A program made the translations under genes and the position numbers. A stretch of DNA of 64,000 nucleotides from Bacillota bacterium (GTDB lineage Bacteria > Bacillota > Sulfobacillia > JAMCWA01). Location of the stretch: the NCBI GenBank assembly GCA_023475165.1, contig JAMCWA010000029.1:1950-65949 (forward strand), written 5' to 3'. Below the pieces are notes generated by a model. The model searched no databases and was not told the origin of the DNA. It was given only the letters and a program-made list of their open reading frames with translations. The first letter of the stretch is position 1. Every line of letters starts with the position of its first letter. Shown here one piece after another: positions 3,600 through 42,800 of the stretch.

Positions 3600-3674
3600 G
3601 GGCGAATAGCTCAGTGGTAGAGCACCTGCCTTACACGCAGGGGGTCACAGGTTCGAGCCCTGTTTCGCCCACCA
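3600..3674 (+). tRNA. tRNA-Val (anticodon TAC), CCA encoded
   Basis: Acceptor GGGCGAA/TTCGCCC, anticodon arm CCTGC-CTTACAC-GCAGG, T-loop GGTTCGAGCC, 3' ACCA. Confidence 0.95.
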
Positions 3675-3689
3675 GAGTGACGCAAATAC

Positions 3690-3767
3690 GGAGGCGTGGT
3701 GTAGCTGGCCTAACATACATGCCTGTCACGCATGAGACCGCGGGTTCGAATCCCGTCGCCTCCGCCA
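3690..3767 (+). tRNA. tRNA-Asp (anticodon GTC), CCA encoded
   Basis: Acceptor GGAGGCG/CGCCTCC, anticodon arm CATGC-CTGTCAC-GCATG, T-loop GGTTCGAATCC, 3' GCCA. Confidence 0.95.
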
Positions 3768-3772
3768 TAAAG

Positions 3773-3848
<76 letters not shown>

Positions 3849-3856
3849 GTAATCAT

Positions 3857-3931
3857 GCGGAAGTGGCTCAGTGGTGGAGCATCGCCTTGCCAAGGCGAGG
3901 GTCGCGGGTTCGAATCCCGTCTTCCGCTCCA
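3857..3931 (+). tRNA. tRNA-Gly (anticodon GCC), CCA encoded
   Basis: Acceptor GCGGAAG/CTTCCGC, anticodon arm TCGCC-TTGCCAA-GGCGA, T-loop GGTTCGAATCC, 3' TCCA. Confidence 0.95.
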
Positions 3932-4007
3932 AAAGAGTAAATCGGGGGTCTCCTTGCCAGATCCCCTTAAAGCATATGATGGTCGGATGACCAGTAAGGC
4001 TATCCTG

Positions 4008-4083
4008 GGGCGAGTGGCGAAGTGGCTAACGCTGTGGACTGCAAATCCACCATTCGTCGGTTCAATTCCGACCTCGCCCTCCA
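4008..4083 (+). tRNA. tRNA-Cys (anticodon GCA), CCA encoded
   Basis: Acceptor GGGCGAG/CTCGCCC, anticodon arm GTGGA-CTGCAAA-TCCAC, T-loop GGTTCAATTCC, 3' TCCA. Confidence 0.9.
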
Positions 4084-4089
4084 GAATAC

Positions 4090-4166
4090 GGGCGGTTAGC
4101 TCAGTTGGTTAGAGCGCATGCTTGACATGCATGAGGTCACAGGTTCGAATCCTGTATCGCCCACCA
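4090..4166 (+). tRNA. tRNA-Val (anticodon GAC), CCA encoded
   Basis: Acceptor GGGCGGT/ATCGCCC (one G-U pair), anticodon arm CATGC-TTGACAT-GCATG, T-loop GGTTCGAATCC, 3' ACCA. Confidence 0.95.
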
Positions 4167-11469: not shown

Positions 11470-12291
11470 ATGAGGTTGAAGGTGGAACATTATTTCTTGG
11501 GAGTAGACATCGGTTCTCTAACCACCAAAATCGTCCTTTTGGATGAAGGCGGGAAAATCGTGGCCCAGGCCACCCGGCGTTCGGGCTACCGCGGCAAAGA
11601 GACGGCGGAACGGTTACTGGAGGACCTGTTGCGGGAGCGGGGTTTAGGCCGGGAGCAGATCGCCAAAGTCGCGGCCACCGGCTATGGCCGGATTACTTTT
11701 CCCGCCGATCGGGAGATCTCCGAGATCACCTGCCAGGCGCGGGGGATTAACCATCTCTTTCGGGGAGTCCGCACCATCATCGACATTGGCGGGCAGGATA
11801 GCAAAGTGATCAAAATTTTGCCTAGTGGCCGGGTGGGCGATTTCGTGATGAACGATAAATGCGCGGCGGGGACGGGGCGCTTCCTGGAGGTCATGAGTCA
11901 AGCTTTGGAGGTAGACTTAGAAGAGCTGGGAAGACTGGCCGGCCTGGCGGAAAAGGCGGCAGCGATTTCCTCGACCTGTACCGTTTTCGCGGAATCGGAG
12001 GTAGTATCGTATTTGGCCCAAGGGGCCGAAAGAAGCGACATCATCGCCGGGCTTTGTGCTTCCGTGGCCGCGCGGGTAGCGGCCCTGGTCAGCCGCGTCG
12101 GTGTGGAAAAAGAGGTCCTTTTAACCGGAGGTGTGGCCCGGAACCAGGGCGTGGTGCGGGCTTTGCAGGAGAAGCTGGGTCTTGCGCTCTTGATCCCCCC
12201 AGAACCCAGTATAACGGCTGCCCTGGGCGCCGCCCTTTTTGCCCGCGACCTGGCAAGGAACAATGAAAATGTCACGATAAAAACGCGTTAA
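11470..12291 (+). CDS. ATP-dependent activase of the radical dehydratase (HgdC / BcrAD-BadFG ATPase family)
   Basis: LGVDIGSLTTKIVLLDEGG (ASKHA phosphate-1), DIGGQDSKVI, NDKCAAGTGRFLE (cluster-ligand Cys region), TGGVARNQGVV. The start is uncertain: ATG 11470 or TTG 11458. Confidence 0.85.
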   Translation: MRLKVEHYFLGVDIGSLTTKIVLLDEGGKIVAQATRRSGYRGKETAERLLEDLLRERGLGREQIAKVAATGYGRITFPADREISEITCQARGINHLFRGVRTIIDIGGQDSKVIKILPSGRVGDFVMNDKCAAGTGRFLEVMSQALEVDLEELGRLAGLAEKAAAISSTCTVFAESEVVSYLAQGAERSDIIAGLCASVAARVAALVSRVGVEKEVLLTGGVARNQGVVRALQEKLGLALLIPPEPSITAALGAALFARDLARNNENVTIKTR

Positions 12292-12374
12292 GGGGACAGA
12301 TGCCCAGGGAACTGGCATAACCAAGATATCTCCGCAATGAAAATGTCACGATAAAAACGCGTTAAGCGGACAGA
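12261..12374 (+). repeat. Direct duplication of the activase 3' end, stop codon included (40 bp, 39/40 identical, offset 74 bp)
   Basis: CAATGAAAATGTCACGATAAAAACGCGTTAAG(G/C)GGACAGA at 12261-12300 and at 12335-12374. Confidence 0.9.
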
Positions 12375-18209: not shown

Positions 18210-18530
18210 AATGTGACATCATACTTATGGCGATGATCGGGAAAGTAACTCTTTTCAGACCTAGCAGAGAAGAGGGCCGCTGGCTGAAAGCCCTCAGGCA
18301 GAGGAAAGAGCGAAAACCACCCGAGAGCCGGAGGATGAACGGGATCGCCTGCACAGATCTCGCCAGGGGTCTTTAAGGGCGGAGCGAGTCCCCTGCAGGC
18401 AGTTGACCAACGCGGTCTCCTACTAAATCCTCCCGGATGGTCCCGTTAAAGGCCGACGAGTGGATCCTTTTTCGGATCAAACAGGGTGGAACCGCGGTCA
18501 GCAACCGTCCCTATCGGGGCGGTTTTTTGT
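18210..18530 (+). promoter_or_regulatory. T-box riboswitch, Thr specifier (ACC)
   Basis: Stem I start GCGATGATCGGGAAAGTA. Specifier-loop GAAAACCA with ACC at 18316-18318. T-box AGGGTGGAACCGCG at 18483-18496. Terminator CCGTCCC-TATC-GGGGCGG plus T6 (18504-18528). Confidence 0.9.
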
Positions 18531-23262: not shown

Positions 23263-24615
23263 ATGGAACTCTTCCATTTCAGAATCGTTCAGGGAATTAG
23301 GCTTACCCCACCCCGGATCCTGGCTTTTGGTTTTGCCGGAGTGATCCTGCTGGGAAGCTTTTTACTGACGCTCCCCGCCGCGGCCCGGGCCGGCCAGGGC
23401 ACCTCGTATCTGGATGCCCTCTTCACGGCTACGTCGGCGACCTGTGTCACCGGGCTGGTGGTGGTGGATACCGGCAGCCACTATTCCCTTTTCGGGCAGT
23501 TGGTGATCCTTTCATTAATCCAGGTGGGTGGGCTGGGGATCATGACCATGGCCACCCTCTACGCCCTGATGATCGGGAAACGAATCACCTTGCGGGAACG
23601 ATTGGCGATTCAAGAATCTTTAGGACAATTCAAAGTGGCTGGGGTGGTGAGACTGACCCGGGCGATCATCCTCATCACCCTGGTCGCCGAGGCGCTGGGA
23701 AGTCTCATTCTTTTCTTCCGCTTCCTGTCTGACTATAGGCTGGCAAAGGCGCTATATTTTGCGGTATTCCATACCGTTTCGGCCTTTAATAACGCCGGTT
23801 TTGACCTTTTCGGCACCAGCCTGATGGGTTACGTGGGAGACCCGGTGGTGATCCTGACGATGTCCGTCCTCATCATCACCGGAGGTCTGGGATTCACCGT
23901 GGTCTATGAACTCTTGGGCCAGTTTAGACAAAGGCATAGCCTCTCTTTGCACAGTAAAGTAGTCTTGAAGACGACGGTCCTCCTTTTAGTCTTGGGGACT
24001 GTCTTCATTTTCCTCTTTGAGTACAGGAACCCATCTACCCTGGCCTCCCTGGATTGGAAGGGCAAGCTATTGGGGGCCTTCTTCCACTCCGTCACCCCCA
24101 GGACGGCGGGCTTTAACTCGCTGCCTACCGGGAAGCTGACACAAGCTACGCTCTTTTTAACGATACTGCTCATGTTCATCGGGGGTTCACCCGCCGGAAC
24201 CGCCGGTGGGATCAAGACCTCCACCTTCGCCACCATTCTGCTGGCGGTATGGATCAACATCAGAGGCAGGACCGATCTGGAGATTTTCCGCCGGCGCCTT
24301 CCCCACGAAATAGTGGCCAAGGCCCTGGTCCTCATGGTTTTGGCGATGCTGCTCGTGGGCGGCATGACATTACTCTTACTTTTGACGGAGCACTGGCCTT
24401 TCCTGGATCTGGCCTTTGAGACCGTTTCCGCTTTCGGTACCGTCGGACTTTCCACGGGGGTTACCCCCAGCCTGAGCCCCATGGGTAAGCTCGTCACAAT
24501 CCTCACCATGTATGCCGGCCGGGTTGGTCCCCTGACCCTGGCCATGGCCCTGGCCCAACAGGGCCAGAAGCCTACTGACATCAGATTGCCGGAGGAAAGG
24601 ATCCTAATCGGTTGA
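23263..24615 (+). CDS. ktrB: Potassium transporter KtrB/TrkH family membrane subunit
   Basis: 450 aa, polytopic, with selectivity-filter-like TGLVVVDTG, NAGFDL, RTAGFNS and STGVTPSLS repeats. Confidence 0.9.
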   Translation: MELFHFRIVQGIRLTPPRILAFGFAGVILLGSFLLTLPAAARAGQGTSYLDALFTATSATCVTGLVVVDTGSHYSLFGQLVILSLIQVGGLGIMTMATLYALMIGKRITLRERLAIQESLGQFKVAGVVRLTRAIILITLVAEALGSLILFFRFLSDYRLAKALYFAVFHTVSAFNNAGFDLFGTSLMGYVGDPVVILTMSVLIITGGLGFTVVYELLGQFRQRHSLSLHSKVVLKTTVLLLVLGTVFIFLFEYRNPSTLASLDWKGKLLGAFFHSVTPRTAGFNSLPTGKLTQATLFLTILLMFIGGSPAGTAGGIKTSTFATILLAVWINIRGRTDLEIFRRRLPHEIVAKALVLMVLAMLLVGGMTLLLLLTEHWPFLDLAFETVSAFGTVGLSTGVTPSLSPMGKLVTILTMYAGRVGPLTLAMALAQQGQKPTDIRLPEERILIG

Positions 24616-24697
24616 GGAGACCGAACCTGGAGAGGCAACTATCTCCGGCTATCGCGTGGTCGGAGGAAAGAATCCTGATCGGTTGAGGAGACCGACC
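24590..24697 (+). repeat. Direct duplication of the ktrB 3' end, stop codon included (37 bp, 34/37 identical, offset 71 bp)
   Basis: CGGAGGAAAGGATCCTAATCGGTTGAGGAGACCGAAC (24590-24626) versus CGGAGGAAAGAATCCTGATCGGTTGAGGAGACCGACC (24661-24697). Confidence 0.9.
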
Positions 24698-24821
24698 GGG
24701 GCTTTCCGCCCAGATTGTGACTGCGGCGGGGCGACTGGAGCAGCCTTGGGACCCAGATAATGGAGCAACTACAGTGCCTGGCAAGAGGTGAGGGACACCT
24801 CTTGAAAGGAGGCGTGACGCC

Positions 24822-25598: not shown

Positions 25599-26669
25599 AT
25601 GCCTGAAGACATTATCAGTCTGGATAACGAACGGATCAAGTCGGCCCGTAAGCTCCTGACGGCTCGCGGACGGGCCGGGGCCGGCCGATTTCTCTTGGAG
25701 GGTCTGCGTTTGGTGGAGGAGGCCTTTGGTTCCGGGGTGGAGCTGGAGGTCCTTTTTTATACCCAGGATTTCTTGGAAGACCACCGCGGGCGTCACCTGG
25801 TGGAAGAGGTGACGGGGCTGGGAGGTAAAGCCTGGTCCGTTTCGCAGCGAGTGCTGAGGTCACTGAGCGAGACAGAGACGCCCCAGGGGGTGGTGGCCGT
25901 GGCCATTATGCCCCATTCTTCCGCCGCCGCCGTTCGGAGGACGCCGTCTCCTGCCGGAGATCCTGGAGAAGGGGCGAAAGGGGCCTCGGAGGCTAGGAGA
26001 TTCCGCCAATGGGTAAAACCGGGCGTGAAGATCGGGTCATCCGGAGAAGAGCAGATGGCTGGGGAGGGGGAGCGGAGGCAGGGATGGTCTGGGGTTGAGG
26101 TGGTGGACCACCCCCAGTTGGAAGGGGTGGATGAGGAGGGGGATTGGGTTGGATTATTCCGGAGGGTTTTATCTCGCCCGTCGCCTCTTATCTTGATAGC
26201 CGACGGTTTACAGGACCCCGGCAACCTCGGCACCATGATCCGGACGGCCGATGCGGCCGGTGCCGACGGGGTCTTCACCACCCCGGGCACCGTTGACCTT
26301 TATAACCCCAAGGTCCTGCGGGCCAGCATGGGTTCCCTCTTTCACCTGCCTGTGCTCCCCGTTTCCAGCGTCGCCCGCCTTCTGTCGGAGGTTACCGGGG
26401 TAGGGCTGATGGTTCTGGCGGCGGACGCCGGGGCGGAAGAGAACATTTATCAATTCGATCTGCGGGGTCCGGTCCTTTTTGCTGTCGGCAATGAGGGGGC
26501 CGGGGTGAGTCCGCTGCTCCTGGCCCACAGCCGGCGGGTGGCCATCCCCATGCCGGGACGAGCGGAATCCCTCAATGCCGCAGTGGCGGCGTCGATACTG
26601 CTATTTGAGGCTGTTCGCCAGAGACGCCAGAAGCACATGTCGTCCCTGGCGCCGACCCAGACCCGGTAA
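25599..26669 (+). CDS. TrmH/SpoU-family RNA 2'-O-methyltransferase (YsgA/RlmB-like) with a ~90-aa low-complexity insertion
   Basis: SpoU motifs DGLQDPGNLGTMIRTADAAG, FAVGNEGAGVS and IPMPGRAESLNAAVAASI. Sits upstream of pheS as ysgA does in Bacillus. 356 aa against roughly 250-270 for typical members. Confidence 0.85.
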   Translation: MPEDIISLDNERIKSARKLLTARGRAGAGRFLLEGLRLVEEAFGSGVELEVLFYTQDFLEDHRGRHLVEEVTGLGGKAWSVSQRVLRSLSETETPQGVVAVAIMPHSSAAAVRRTPSPAGDPGEGAKGASEARRFRQWVKPGVKIGSSGEEQMAGEGERRQGWSGVEVVDHPQLEGVDEEGDWVGLFRRVLSRPSPLILIADGLQDPGNLGTMIRTADAAGADGVFTTPGTVDLYNPKVLRASMGSLFHLPVLPVSSVARLLSEVTGVGLMVLAADAGAEENIYQFDLRGPVLFAVGNEGAGVSPLLLAHSRRVAIPMPGRAESLNAAVAASILLFEAVRQRRQKHMSSLAPTQTR

Positions 26670-31388: not shown

Positions 31389-31493
31389 GGCGCCCGAAGG
31401 TGAGAAGTGATCAAACCAACTCCTTGTCATGAAATATTGCGCTTACCTTCTTTGGGGCGGCGCCCGAAGGTGAGAAGTGACCAAACCCACTCC
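31389..31493 (+). repeat. 35-bp direct repeat pair (offset 70 bp)
   Basis: GGCGCCCGAAGGTGAGAAGTGATCAAACCAACTCC (31389-31423) versus GGCGCCCGAAGGTGAGAAGTGACCAAACCCACTCC (31459-31493); 33/35 identical. Confidence 0.85.
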
Positions 31494-36130: not shown

Positions 36131-36535
36131 AGAGGGCTGACGAACTGCGAGTTGAGCGGCAAACGCGCCCGGGGAAACTCAGGCCAAGACCGCGTAAAGA
36201 TGCCCAGATGCTAGGAGCGACAAGGCTCCGAAGCGAGGCGTACCAAGTGGTACGTTGAGCGAGGAGGCGCCGGAGCGACACAATTTACCATAGTCATGCA
36301 CCATTTGACCAGGAAAGCTCCCTTGGAGAATTGCGCCACAATCCGCCACAGTTACGCCCCATTTTGGGGAAAGTTCTTCGGCGGATTGCGCCACAATCCG
36401 CCACAGTTACGCCCCATTTTGGGGAAAGTTCTTCGGCGGATTGCGCCACAATCCGCCACAGACGCGTCCCATTTTTGGGAGAAGTTCTTCGGCGGATTGC
36501 ACCACCGCAGATGGGTGTTTTTCAGCGGTCTTCTA
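36131..36535 (+). repeat. Longest copy of the modular repeat family, with three tandem 55/56-bp hairpin modules; inserted between the hydrogenase large subunit and its protease
   Basis: GCTGACGAACTGCG (36136..), the CCAGATGCTAGGAGCGACAAGG...GGAGCGACACAAT module (36204-36284), 55-bp units at 36331-36385 and 36386-36440 (identical) and 36441-36496 (diverged), and the end module ATTGCACCACCGCAGATGGGTGTTTTTCAGCGGTCTTC (36496-36533). Confidence 0.9.
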
Positions 36536-41153: not shown

Positions 41154-42338
41154 ATGTCGCCAGGGAAGGACGGCCGAAAGGTGGCCATAGTTGATACCAC
41201 TTTGCGGGATGGAGAGCAGACGGCGGGGGTGGTTTTCGCCAAGTCGGAGAAGATCCGAATTGCTCAGATGCTGGACGAGGTGGGGGTGGATCAGATTGAG
41301 GTCGGTATTCCCGTCATGGGCGGGGAAGAGATGGAGGCCGTTAAGGCCATAGCCAGGCTAGGTTTGCGGGCCAGCTTGATGGCCTGGAACCGGGCGGTCG
41401 TATCCGATGTGGAGGCGTCCCTGGCCTGCGGGGTAGACGCCGTGGCTATCTCCATCTCCACCTCTGATATTCACATCCAGCATAAGCTCAAGGCCTCCCG
41501 GCAGTGGGTTCTGGATGCCACGGCCAGGGCGGTGGAACTGGCCAAACGGAATGGTTTGTACGTCTCGGCCAACGCCGAGGATGCCTCCCGGACGGACCCC
41601 TATTTCCTGGCGGAATTCATCCGCGTGGCCCGCCAGGCTGGGGCTGACCGGATCAGATACTGTGACACTGTGGGCATCTTAGATCCTTTCCGTACCTGCG
41701 ACCTGGTCAAAGAACTGATCTATACCCAAGGCATAGATATTGAGATGCATACTCATAACGATCTGGGAATGGCTACGGCCAACGCCCTGGCGGGTGTTCG
41801 GGCCGGAGCAACCTATGTCGGCGTTACCGTCAACGGCCTGGGGGAACGGGCGGGGAACGCGGCCCTGGAAGAAGTGGTGATGGCCCTCAAGTACACCATG
41901 GACCTGGACCTGGGACTGGATACCAGGCGATTTCGCGAGCTATCTGAGTACGTGGCCCGGGCCTCAGACCGGGAGATCCCGCCGGGCAAAGCCATCGTCG
42001 GGTCCAACACCTTTGCCCACGAATCCGGCATCCACACCGATGGGACCTTAAAGAACCCGCGAACCTATGAGGCCTTCAATCCGGAAGAGGTGGGCCTGGA
42101 GCGTCAGATCGTCATTGGGAAGCACTCCGGAAGCCGGGCTATCATGAACAAGTTTAAGGAGTACGGAGTTTTTTTGACGGAAAAGGAGGCAGCCGCCTTG
42201 CTGCCCCAGGTAAGGGCCCTGGCCATCGAGTTGAAGCGACCGCTTTTTGATAAGGAACTGGCCTACCTTTACTCGGCTCACGTTAGGGCCAGGCCGGAAA
42301 AGTCAGCGGTGGGAACCATTGGTCGGGAAGGACGCTGA
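41154..42338 (+). CDS. Homocitrate / Re-citrate / 2-alkylmalate synthase family protein (NifV/LeuA-like, DRE-TIM aldolase)
   Basis: ATG 41154 after GGAAGGGGGG. VAIVDTTLRDGEQTAGVVF, IEVGIP, HTHNDLGMATANALAG and HESGIH motifs. ~394 aa with no LeuA regulatory domain. Confidence 0.85.
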   Translation: MSPGKDGRKVAIVDTTLRDGEQTAGVVFAKSEKIRIAQMLDEVGVDQIEVGIPVMGGEEMEAVKAIARLGLRASLMAWNRAVVSDVEASLACGVDAVAISISTSDIHIQHKLKASRQWVLDATARAVELAKRNGLYVSANAEDASRTDPYFLAEFIRVARQAGADRIRYCDTVGILDPFRTCDLVKELIYTQGIDIEMHTHNDLGMATANALAGVRAGATYVGVTVNGLGERAGNAALEEVVMALKYTMDLDLGLDTRRFRELSEYVARASDREIPPGKAIVGSNTFAHESGIHTDGTLKNPRTYEAFNPEEVGLERQIVIGKHSGSRAIMNKFKEYGVFLTEKEAAALLPQVRALAIELKRPLFDKELAYLYSAHVRARPEKSAVGTIGREGR

Positions 42339-42416
42339 GTGATTCGACCAAACTGCCGGAGCAACCCGGCGGCCGTTGGTGTGGGAACCATTGGTCGGGA
42401 AGGACGCGGAATGATT
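42309..42416 (+). repeat. Direct duplication of the synthase 3' end (about 36 bp, offset 72 bp); the stop TGA becomes GGA in copy 2
   Basis: GTGGGAACCATTGGTCGGGAAGGACGCTGAGTGATT (42309-42344) versus GTGGGAACCATTGGTCGGGAAGGACGCGGAATGATT (42381-42416); 34/36 identical. Confidence 0.9.
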
Positions 42417-42508: not shown

Positions 42509-42800
42509 GAGGCCGCTGAAAAATACCCATCTGCGGTGTGGCGCAATCTGCCAGAAAGAACCTTTTTATTAAAGGGGCGTTACTATTGCCGATTGTCGCT
42601 CCGGCGGCTCCTCGCTCAACGTACCACCTGGTACGCCTCGCCTCGGAGCCTTGTCGCTCCTAGCATCTGGGCTGATCTGAGGTCTTGGCCTTATGATTGG
42701 GCTAAAGCCGCCAGAAACACGAGCGCCATCAAGCGCAGTACAGACTAGGACGGCTTTTCCCGGGCGGGTTAACCACTCAAAACGCAGTTCGTCAGCACTC
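42509..42800 (-). repeat. Full-length copy of the modular repeat family (inverted relative to 50734-50974)
   Basis: GAGGCCGCTGAAAAATACCCATCTGCGGTGTGGCGCAAT (42509-42547), ATTGTCGCTCCGGCGG...CTCCTAGCATCTGG (42592-42670), CCGGGCGGGTTAACCACTCAAAACGCAGTTCGTCAGC (about 42759-42796). Confidence 0.9.

Follow-up and report, generated by a model that had tools for sequence, protein, structure and literature searches.

Genome-wide CRISPR-like insertion scars in a Bacillota MAG in which no cas1, cas2 or CRISPR array was found

Introduction

In the genome of an uncultured member of the Bacillota, the gene for an acyl-CoA dehydratase activase ends in a segment of 40 bp, including the stop codon, that is found a second time just downstream of the gene. 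The question raised by this locus is which process copies the end of a gene and leaves the two copies separated by a short stretch of unrelated DNA. An earlier note on 64,000 nt of this genome (hereafter the window) had listed three such gene ends. The analysis reported here covers the window, the whole genome, independent assemblies of the same population and relatives of the same class.

Genome data and repeat scan

The genome is a MAG of 3.08 Mb in 121 contigs, with a GC content of 57.7-57.8% and a completeness of 93.5%, and the window corresponds to C110:1950-65949. Ungapped direct repeats were scanned on all 121 contigs at offsets of 40-130, the offsets 40-67 and 79-130 being used as background.

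Duplicated segments in the window

The sequence comparison agrees with the earlier note on the three duplicated gene ends (12261/12335, 24590/24661 and 42309/42381). The three pairs are real, but the count of three was too low, since the window contains four units, the fourth of which lies away from any CDS end (Table 1). The gene of unit 1 is the acyl-CoA dehydratase activase gene, that of unit 2 is ktrB, and that of unit 3 codes for a NifV-like protein (homocitrate/isopropylmalate synthase-type). Searches of the remaining genome, of phages and of plasmids gave no match to the insert of unit 1.

Table 1. Positions, in window coordinates, of the two copies (X1, X2) and the insert (Y) of each unit of the window.
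Unit	Feature	Position	Strand	Description
1	Copy X1	12261..12300	+	Last 28 nt of the activase CDS, stop TAA 12289-12291, 9 nt downstream
1	Insert Y	12301..12334	.	34 nt, unique, spacer-sized
1	Copy X2	12335..12374	+	Non-coding duplicate of the activase CDS end; 39/40 identical to X1, offset 74
2	Copy X1	24590..24624	+	ktrB end including stop TGA 24613-24615
2	Insert Y	24625..24660	.	36 nt, unique
2	Copy X2	24661..24695	+	33/35 identical to X1, offset 71; DNA downstream unique, no MITE
3	Copy X1	42309..42344	+	NifV-like CDS end, stop TGA 42336-42338
3	Insert Y	42345..42380	.	36 nt, unique
3	Copy X2	42381..42416	+	34/36 identical to X1, offset 72; duplicate stop codon mutated
4	Copy X1	31389..31423	.	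C110:33338; downstream of the hairpin-repeat RNA region after pheT
4	Insert Y	31424..31458	.	35 nt
4	Copy X2	31459..31493	.	33/35 identical to X1, offset 70

The C-terminus of the activase (12250-12291, ...ARDLARNNENVTIKTR) extends about 8-10 residues beyond homologues of 257-262 aa, and this non-conserved tail is the region covered by the duplicated segment of unit 1; no relative of the activase above 71% identity was found. The window also carries a six-tRNA cluster and a T-box leader (3600-4163 and 18224-18515), and no Rfam family overlaps the X-Y-X units. Another kind of repeat is present at 36312-36505, where three to four tandem 55-nt units are made of a dispersed genomic repeat containing ATTGCGCCACAATCCGCCACAG; the same repeat family is found at position 42530 of the window and on many contigs.

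Genome-wide number and geometry

The whole-genome scan for nearby duplicates that the earlier note had proposed was positive. Indeed, the offsets 70-76 yielded 60 repeat pairs, whereas the background offsets had 0.59 pairs each on average. A few loci (such as C89:24644, C42:21244 and C67:9681) are ordinary coding tandem repeats and were set aside, so that about 55 units remain; with about 55-60 units, the process is recurrent across the genome. Each pair has its own sequence genome-wide, which bears out the proposal that geometry, and not sequence, is the common feature.

The layout of the units is X-Y-X: a segment of 36-38 bp specific to each locus (X) is duplicated on either side of 35-37 bp of unrelated DNA, the insert (Y). 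In the ten perfect pairs, X measures 37-38 bp (41 bp in one case) and Y 35-37 bp (32 bp in one case), and in the full set the lengths peak at 36-37 for X and 35-37 for Y, the values of X below the peak being those of older units whose edges have mutated. The perfect pairs are the units C16:88278, C70:5976, C75:4160, C75:16797, C75:23773, C82:4163, C82:18696, C89:43464, C92:4271 and C99:34732. The two copies of a unit differ by 0-4 substitutions, with identities from 100% down to about 89%, and this range indicates a process that has been long-running and was active until recently. No multi-unit array was found among the pairs. X is slightly AT-richer than the genome (53.2% GC). Two simple processes were considered on these data and rejected: a hairpin-driven one, neither X nor Y showing an excess of hairpins, and one with a constant sum of 72 nt, the covariance of the X and Y lengths (-1.3) being about that of chance extension of the borders.

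The units are clustered, 11 pairs lying less than 1.5 kb apart where 1.7 are expected. The densest hotspot of the genome, outside the window, is C80:9057-10730, with four units in 1.6 kb at and just past the 3' end of a gene for a P-loop/DUF6079 protein of 1,965 aa; two of these units are in-frame insertions of 24 codons. At C44:8685-8863, also outside the window, a perfect 37-nt pair with an offset of 142 encloses a degenerate third copy (19/21 core match). This locus may be a unit with two inserts, that is, a neo-array that has grown once; however, since CCGGCAATG stands at the end of both inserts, the structure is more complex than that.

Inserts and target borders

The Y sequences show no similarity to each other, to the abundant IS1182-type MITEs of the genome or to nearby DNA, and local templated insertion was therefore rejected. 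A chromosomal match was found for only one of 55 inserts: the insert at C80:9057 (37 nt) reproduces C59:51589-51625 at 36/37 positions, with homology that stops exactly at both borders. The match covers the insert from end to end and no more, so a fragment with defined ends was cut from another site and inserted here, and the insert has the appearance that would be expected of a self-derived spacer. The flanks of this sole protospacer found are CCCTTT before and TAGG after the copied segment. The mean GC content of the inserts (56.7%) is about equal to that of the genome, which, together with the single chromosomal match, suggests host-adapted mobile DNA as the main source. BLAST comparison of all 58 inserts with the INPHARED phages and the PLSDB plasmids gave no match, nor did exact-core scans of IMG/VR with three inserts, as might be expected of a lineage that is uncultured.

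At either border of X there is a preference for C at -2 (43/80, p=3e-6), G at +1, T at +2 and G at +4, followed by an A-rich stretch. After orientation of the borders by expectation-maximisation, the consensus at one border reads C-N/G-T-K-G-C-R-A-A-A (the slash marks the border), and several X end in ...TGAAAC. The motif is weak, with 5.0 bits of information against 3.8 +/- 0.33 in identically treated random sites. With a matrix built from the ends of the 37-nt repeats of relatives (see below), X obtains higher scores than 37-mers drawn at random from the genome (5' end, p=2.5e-6; 3' end, p=0.006); the resemblance to repeats is modest, and about the same performance is obtained with a matrix of 32-nt I-C-type repeats.

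Gene context and selection

With genes approximated by ORFs of at least 100 aa, a stop codon lies within the gene-proximal X copy in 19 of 58 units, and in this position it leaves the protein unchanged. Many other units are intergenic or lie over 5' ends, and five are inside unmistakable genes, namely selB, a GGDEF/HD-GYP gene, a DUF2232 membrane-protein gene and, twice, the 1,965-aa DUF6079 gene. A selection filter is visible in the latter group: all five intragenic insertions add 72 or 75 nt and are read through in frame (for example, ...RRRLSGIGTITV-LDQDGQVWVMED-RRRLSGIGTITV...), multiples of three making up 46% of all units. CDS ends and terminators are therefore not the only sites of the units. 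The link to CDS termini is best accounted for by survivorship: where the stop codon is part of the duplicated segment, the gene stays whole, and gene ends are thus the places where insertions survive and not the target.

In SelB (C86:17088-17186, outside the window), the in-frame X-Y-X insertion comprises 24 codons in a protein of 791 aa, and the insertion site is the linker between the beta-barrel and winged-helix domains.

Other assemblies and class-level relatives

Identical units, base for base, are present in the NCBI MAG GCA_023379645.1, in the Logan assemblies of SRR22746114 and SRR22746115 and in the ENA assembly ERZ27236928 (MEGAHIT). Their presence in independent assemblies means that they are no artefact of one assembly. 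The organism is also contained in the metagenome SRR22746137. An assembly or sequencing artefact might be suspected in a MAG of 121 contigs with redundant contig ends (C49/C112 and C2/C13), but four independent assemblies made with different assemblers carry the same units, many copy pairs have diverged by 1-4 substitutions and the intragenic insertions are in frame, so the probability of such an artefact is practically negligible. Exact-protein look-ups beside recent units retrieved only DNA that is 99.97-100% identical and belongs to the same population.

The contig ends in question overlap by about 140 nt (end of C49 with start of C112, end of C2 with end of C13), one overlap differing by a G7/G8 homopolymer; the assembly thus contains small redundancies and breaks inside coding DNA. 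A SpoU/TrmH-type methyltransferase is split into two calls (132 and 188 aa) in GCA_023379645.1 (5170-6241) and is a single gene of 356 aa in the window (25599-26669) and in the Logan contig; the window and GCA_023379645.1 differ in this DNA by one mismatch and one gap.

The closest relatives in the species-genome set belong to the same class only. In about 640 kb of these class-level relatives (400 kb from one relative with cas1 and 238 kb from the surroundings of cas1 in a further 17), no X-Y-X unit was found outside true CRISPR arrays, which indicates that the enrichment is special to this genome. At the ktrB site, the nearest relative (KtrB 81% identical; Logan contig, SRR31758307) is without the duplication, at a divergence too great for a base-exact comparison. 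The distance from the ktrB stop to the ktrA start is 23 nt in this relative and 206 nt here. Apart from the unit of 71 nt, ktrB and ktrA are separated by about 120 nt of non-coding DNA that is unique (24698-24821 of the window); as the nearest relative has 23 nt only, one or more further events have lengthened this gap.

CRISPR-Cas content of the genome and of the class

No match to Cas1 (PF01867), Cas2 (PF09827) or RAMP proteins (PF03787) was found in the 93.5%-complete MAG, and the assembly contains neither a multi-unit CRISPR array nor solitary repeats of the families found in relatives. Regular-expression matches to repeat-like sequences proved to be overlapping contig ends in coding DNA and not CRISPR repeats.

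In the class, cas1 is present in 21 of the 31 genomes searched. Among the cas1-linked arrays of class-level relatives, 8 of 15 have 37-nt repeats (GTTGCA...GGGGACTGAAAS) with periods of 72-76 nt, and one array with 37-nt repeats adjoins a type I operon encoding Csa1/Cas4, Cas2, Cas1, Cas7 and Cas3. A cas1-positive relative with active 36/37-nt arrays carries no scars in 400 kb, so that having such a system is not sufficient alone and the present genome is exceptional.

Origin of the units

An insert and a duplication that are both of ruled length point to an integrase that is loaded with a fragment of set length and attacks the two target strands at a set spacing. To our knowledge, Cas1-Cas2 is the known enzyme that gives such products with these numbers, and we infer that it is the enzyme concerned. 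Off-target spacer integration by Cas1-Cas2, in a genome in which no cas1, cas2, RAMP gene or array was found, is the best reading of the units and, on balance, a somewhat probable one. Each unit would then be the scar of one integration event, in which an integrase carrying a fragment of about 36 bp (Y) would attack ordinary chromosomal DNA on both strands, at points about 37 bp from each other, and repair of the gaps would duplicate the 37-bp target (X) and yield X-Y-X. Both the chemistry and the ruler would be those of CRISPR spacer acquisition, acting at non-CRISPR sites and producing 'neo-CRISPR' units with one spacer, and the enzyme would be of the type that serves the 37-nt-repeat type I arrays common in this class of Bacillota. 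Selection would act afterwards: insertions would be kept between genes and at those gene ends whose stop or start region is regenerated, and inside genes only tolerated insertions of 72 or 75 nt would remain. The Cas1-Cas2 genes themselves may be unbinned, may be carried on a mobile element (plasmid or phage) or may have been lost recently. Set against what is expected of neo-CRISPR units, the genome shows a repeat-length duplication around a spacer-length insert, both narrowly ruled, inserts that are independent captured fragments, and targets that resemble repeat ends, the last effect being modest and not specific to one repeat family; resident cas1 and cas2 genes and a length-matched array were not found within the 93.5%-complete MAG.

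The lack of these genes and of an array is the main weakness of this reading and, together with the scar-free 400 kb of the cas1-positive relative, speaks for an undescribed integrase or repair pathway, independent of Cas proteins, that makes a stagger of about 37 bp and pastes fragments of about 36 bp genome-wide. We regard such a pathway as possible but rather unlikely, as no candidate enzyme is known, both lengths coincide with a CRISPR geometry common in the class, the target borders resemble repeat ends and the insert size is tightly ruled. A more specific form, in which an integration machinery outside CRISPR-Cas, a relative or a forerunner of the CRISPR adaptation module, operates in a cas-free lineage, is tentative and slightly more doubtful still. 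Processes that only rearrange local DNA are far less probable. Replication slippage, template switching or ordinary tandem duplications that have diverged would account for the few coding tandem repeats found in the same offset range and set aside above, but Y is single-copy in each unit and lacks a template, whether local or genomic, the lengths of X and Y are sharply peaked, about 55 unrelated loci are involved and neither X nor Y is enriched in hairpins, which makes these mechanisms very unlikely. The slippage hotspot at terminators that the earlier note had considered is not supported either, given the same lack of a local template for Y and the units that are intergenic, at 5' ends and intragenic.

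Transposition leaves direct repeats around inserted DNA as well, and for IS1182 ISfinder records variable, sometimes long direct repeats. The units might thus be footprints of the IS1182-type MITEs, left by insertion and imprecise excision or by solo staggered cuts of the transposase; the ktrB duplicate contains GGAGACCG, an 8-mer common to MITE ends, and a few other X overlap MITE ends. However, the inserts resemble neither the multi-copy MITEs nor each other, most X are without MITE sequence, and the ktrB unit is followed by unique DNA. Furthermore, only 7 unique repeat pairs of 28-48 nt occur at offsets 79-1500, which indicates that the MITEs of this genome do not make long target duplications. 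The resident MITEs land on CTAG, whereas the inserts of the scars form no family, lack terminal inverted repeats and are bordered by a far longer duplication. An origin from MITEs is therefore highly improbable, and with it the footprint of an inserted and partly excised element that had been put forward for the three gene ends; the judgement that these are not ordinary transposon target duplications stands, the inserts being no repeated element. The exclusion of a DGR pair is likewise upheld: the copies measure 35-40 bp, against about 100 bp or more for the template and variable repeats (TR/VR) of a DGR, they are spread over about 55 unrelated loci, and the mismatches (G/C, G/A, A/G, T/G) are not mainly at adenines.

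Comparison with known integration systems

Repeat-length duplications in E. coli over-producing Cas1-Cas2 are described by Nivala, Shipman & Church 2018 (Nat Microbiol 3:310), as set out in PMC7054753, PMC6698737, PMC9456107 and bioRxiv 10.1101/148544; according to PMC7054753 and bioRxiv 10.1101/148544, the natural cases of off-target integration are only circumstantial. The present scars share with off-target integration in E. coli the repeat-length duplication around a spacer-length insert, the targets that resemble repeat borders and a self-derived insert. The E. coli events were produced by an over-produced type I-E Cas1-Cas2 and measure 28 + 33 bp, whereas about 60 natural scars of 37 + 36 bp are fixed here in one wild genome. 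Unlike in the E. coli cases, some scars lie in frame within essential-type genes, none has been extended by a second spacer, and the assembly is without cas genes or an array.

In vitro, the off-target sites chosen by Cas1-Cas2 of Pyrococcus furiosus have the length of a repeat, G1/T2 at the borders and a C upstream (PMC6698737). The scars resemble that system in that the two strands are attacked as a pair, one repeat length apart, in the G/C found where attack occurs, in the preferred G1/T2 and upstream C, and in an A-rich interior. The P. furiosus data come from a plasmid assay with a 30-bp repeat, whereas the scars are a genomic record after selection and have a weaker motif. The scars are also like the type I arrays of relatives in repeat length (37), in period (72-76 nt) and in ends of the GT... 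/ ...GAAAC type. In real arrays, however, one repeat is reused many times beside cas genes, whereas each scar has its own 'repeat' and the scars are scattered singly.

The scar set is genome-wide, of CRISPR type, statistically overwhelming and far richer than any in the literature searched. Its anatomy constrains the mechanism well, and Cas1-Cas2 is the putative enzyme.

Significance

Off-array spacer integration has so far been clearly shown only in E. coli over-producing Cas1-Cas2. The present genome is a record of about 60 events over a long time, with target preferences and a selection filter. Through such insertions 3' regions become longer, and genes such as selB gain 24-25 codons. The scars are, furthermore, seeds of the repeat-spacer-repeat kind that could give rise to new CRISPR arrays. 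That the assembly lacks cas genes sharpens the case, since either the adaptation genes are mobile or short-lived and leave lasting scars, or another enzyme has the same ruler. Either outcome bears on how CRISPR adaptation evolves and misfires.
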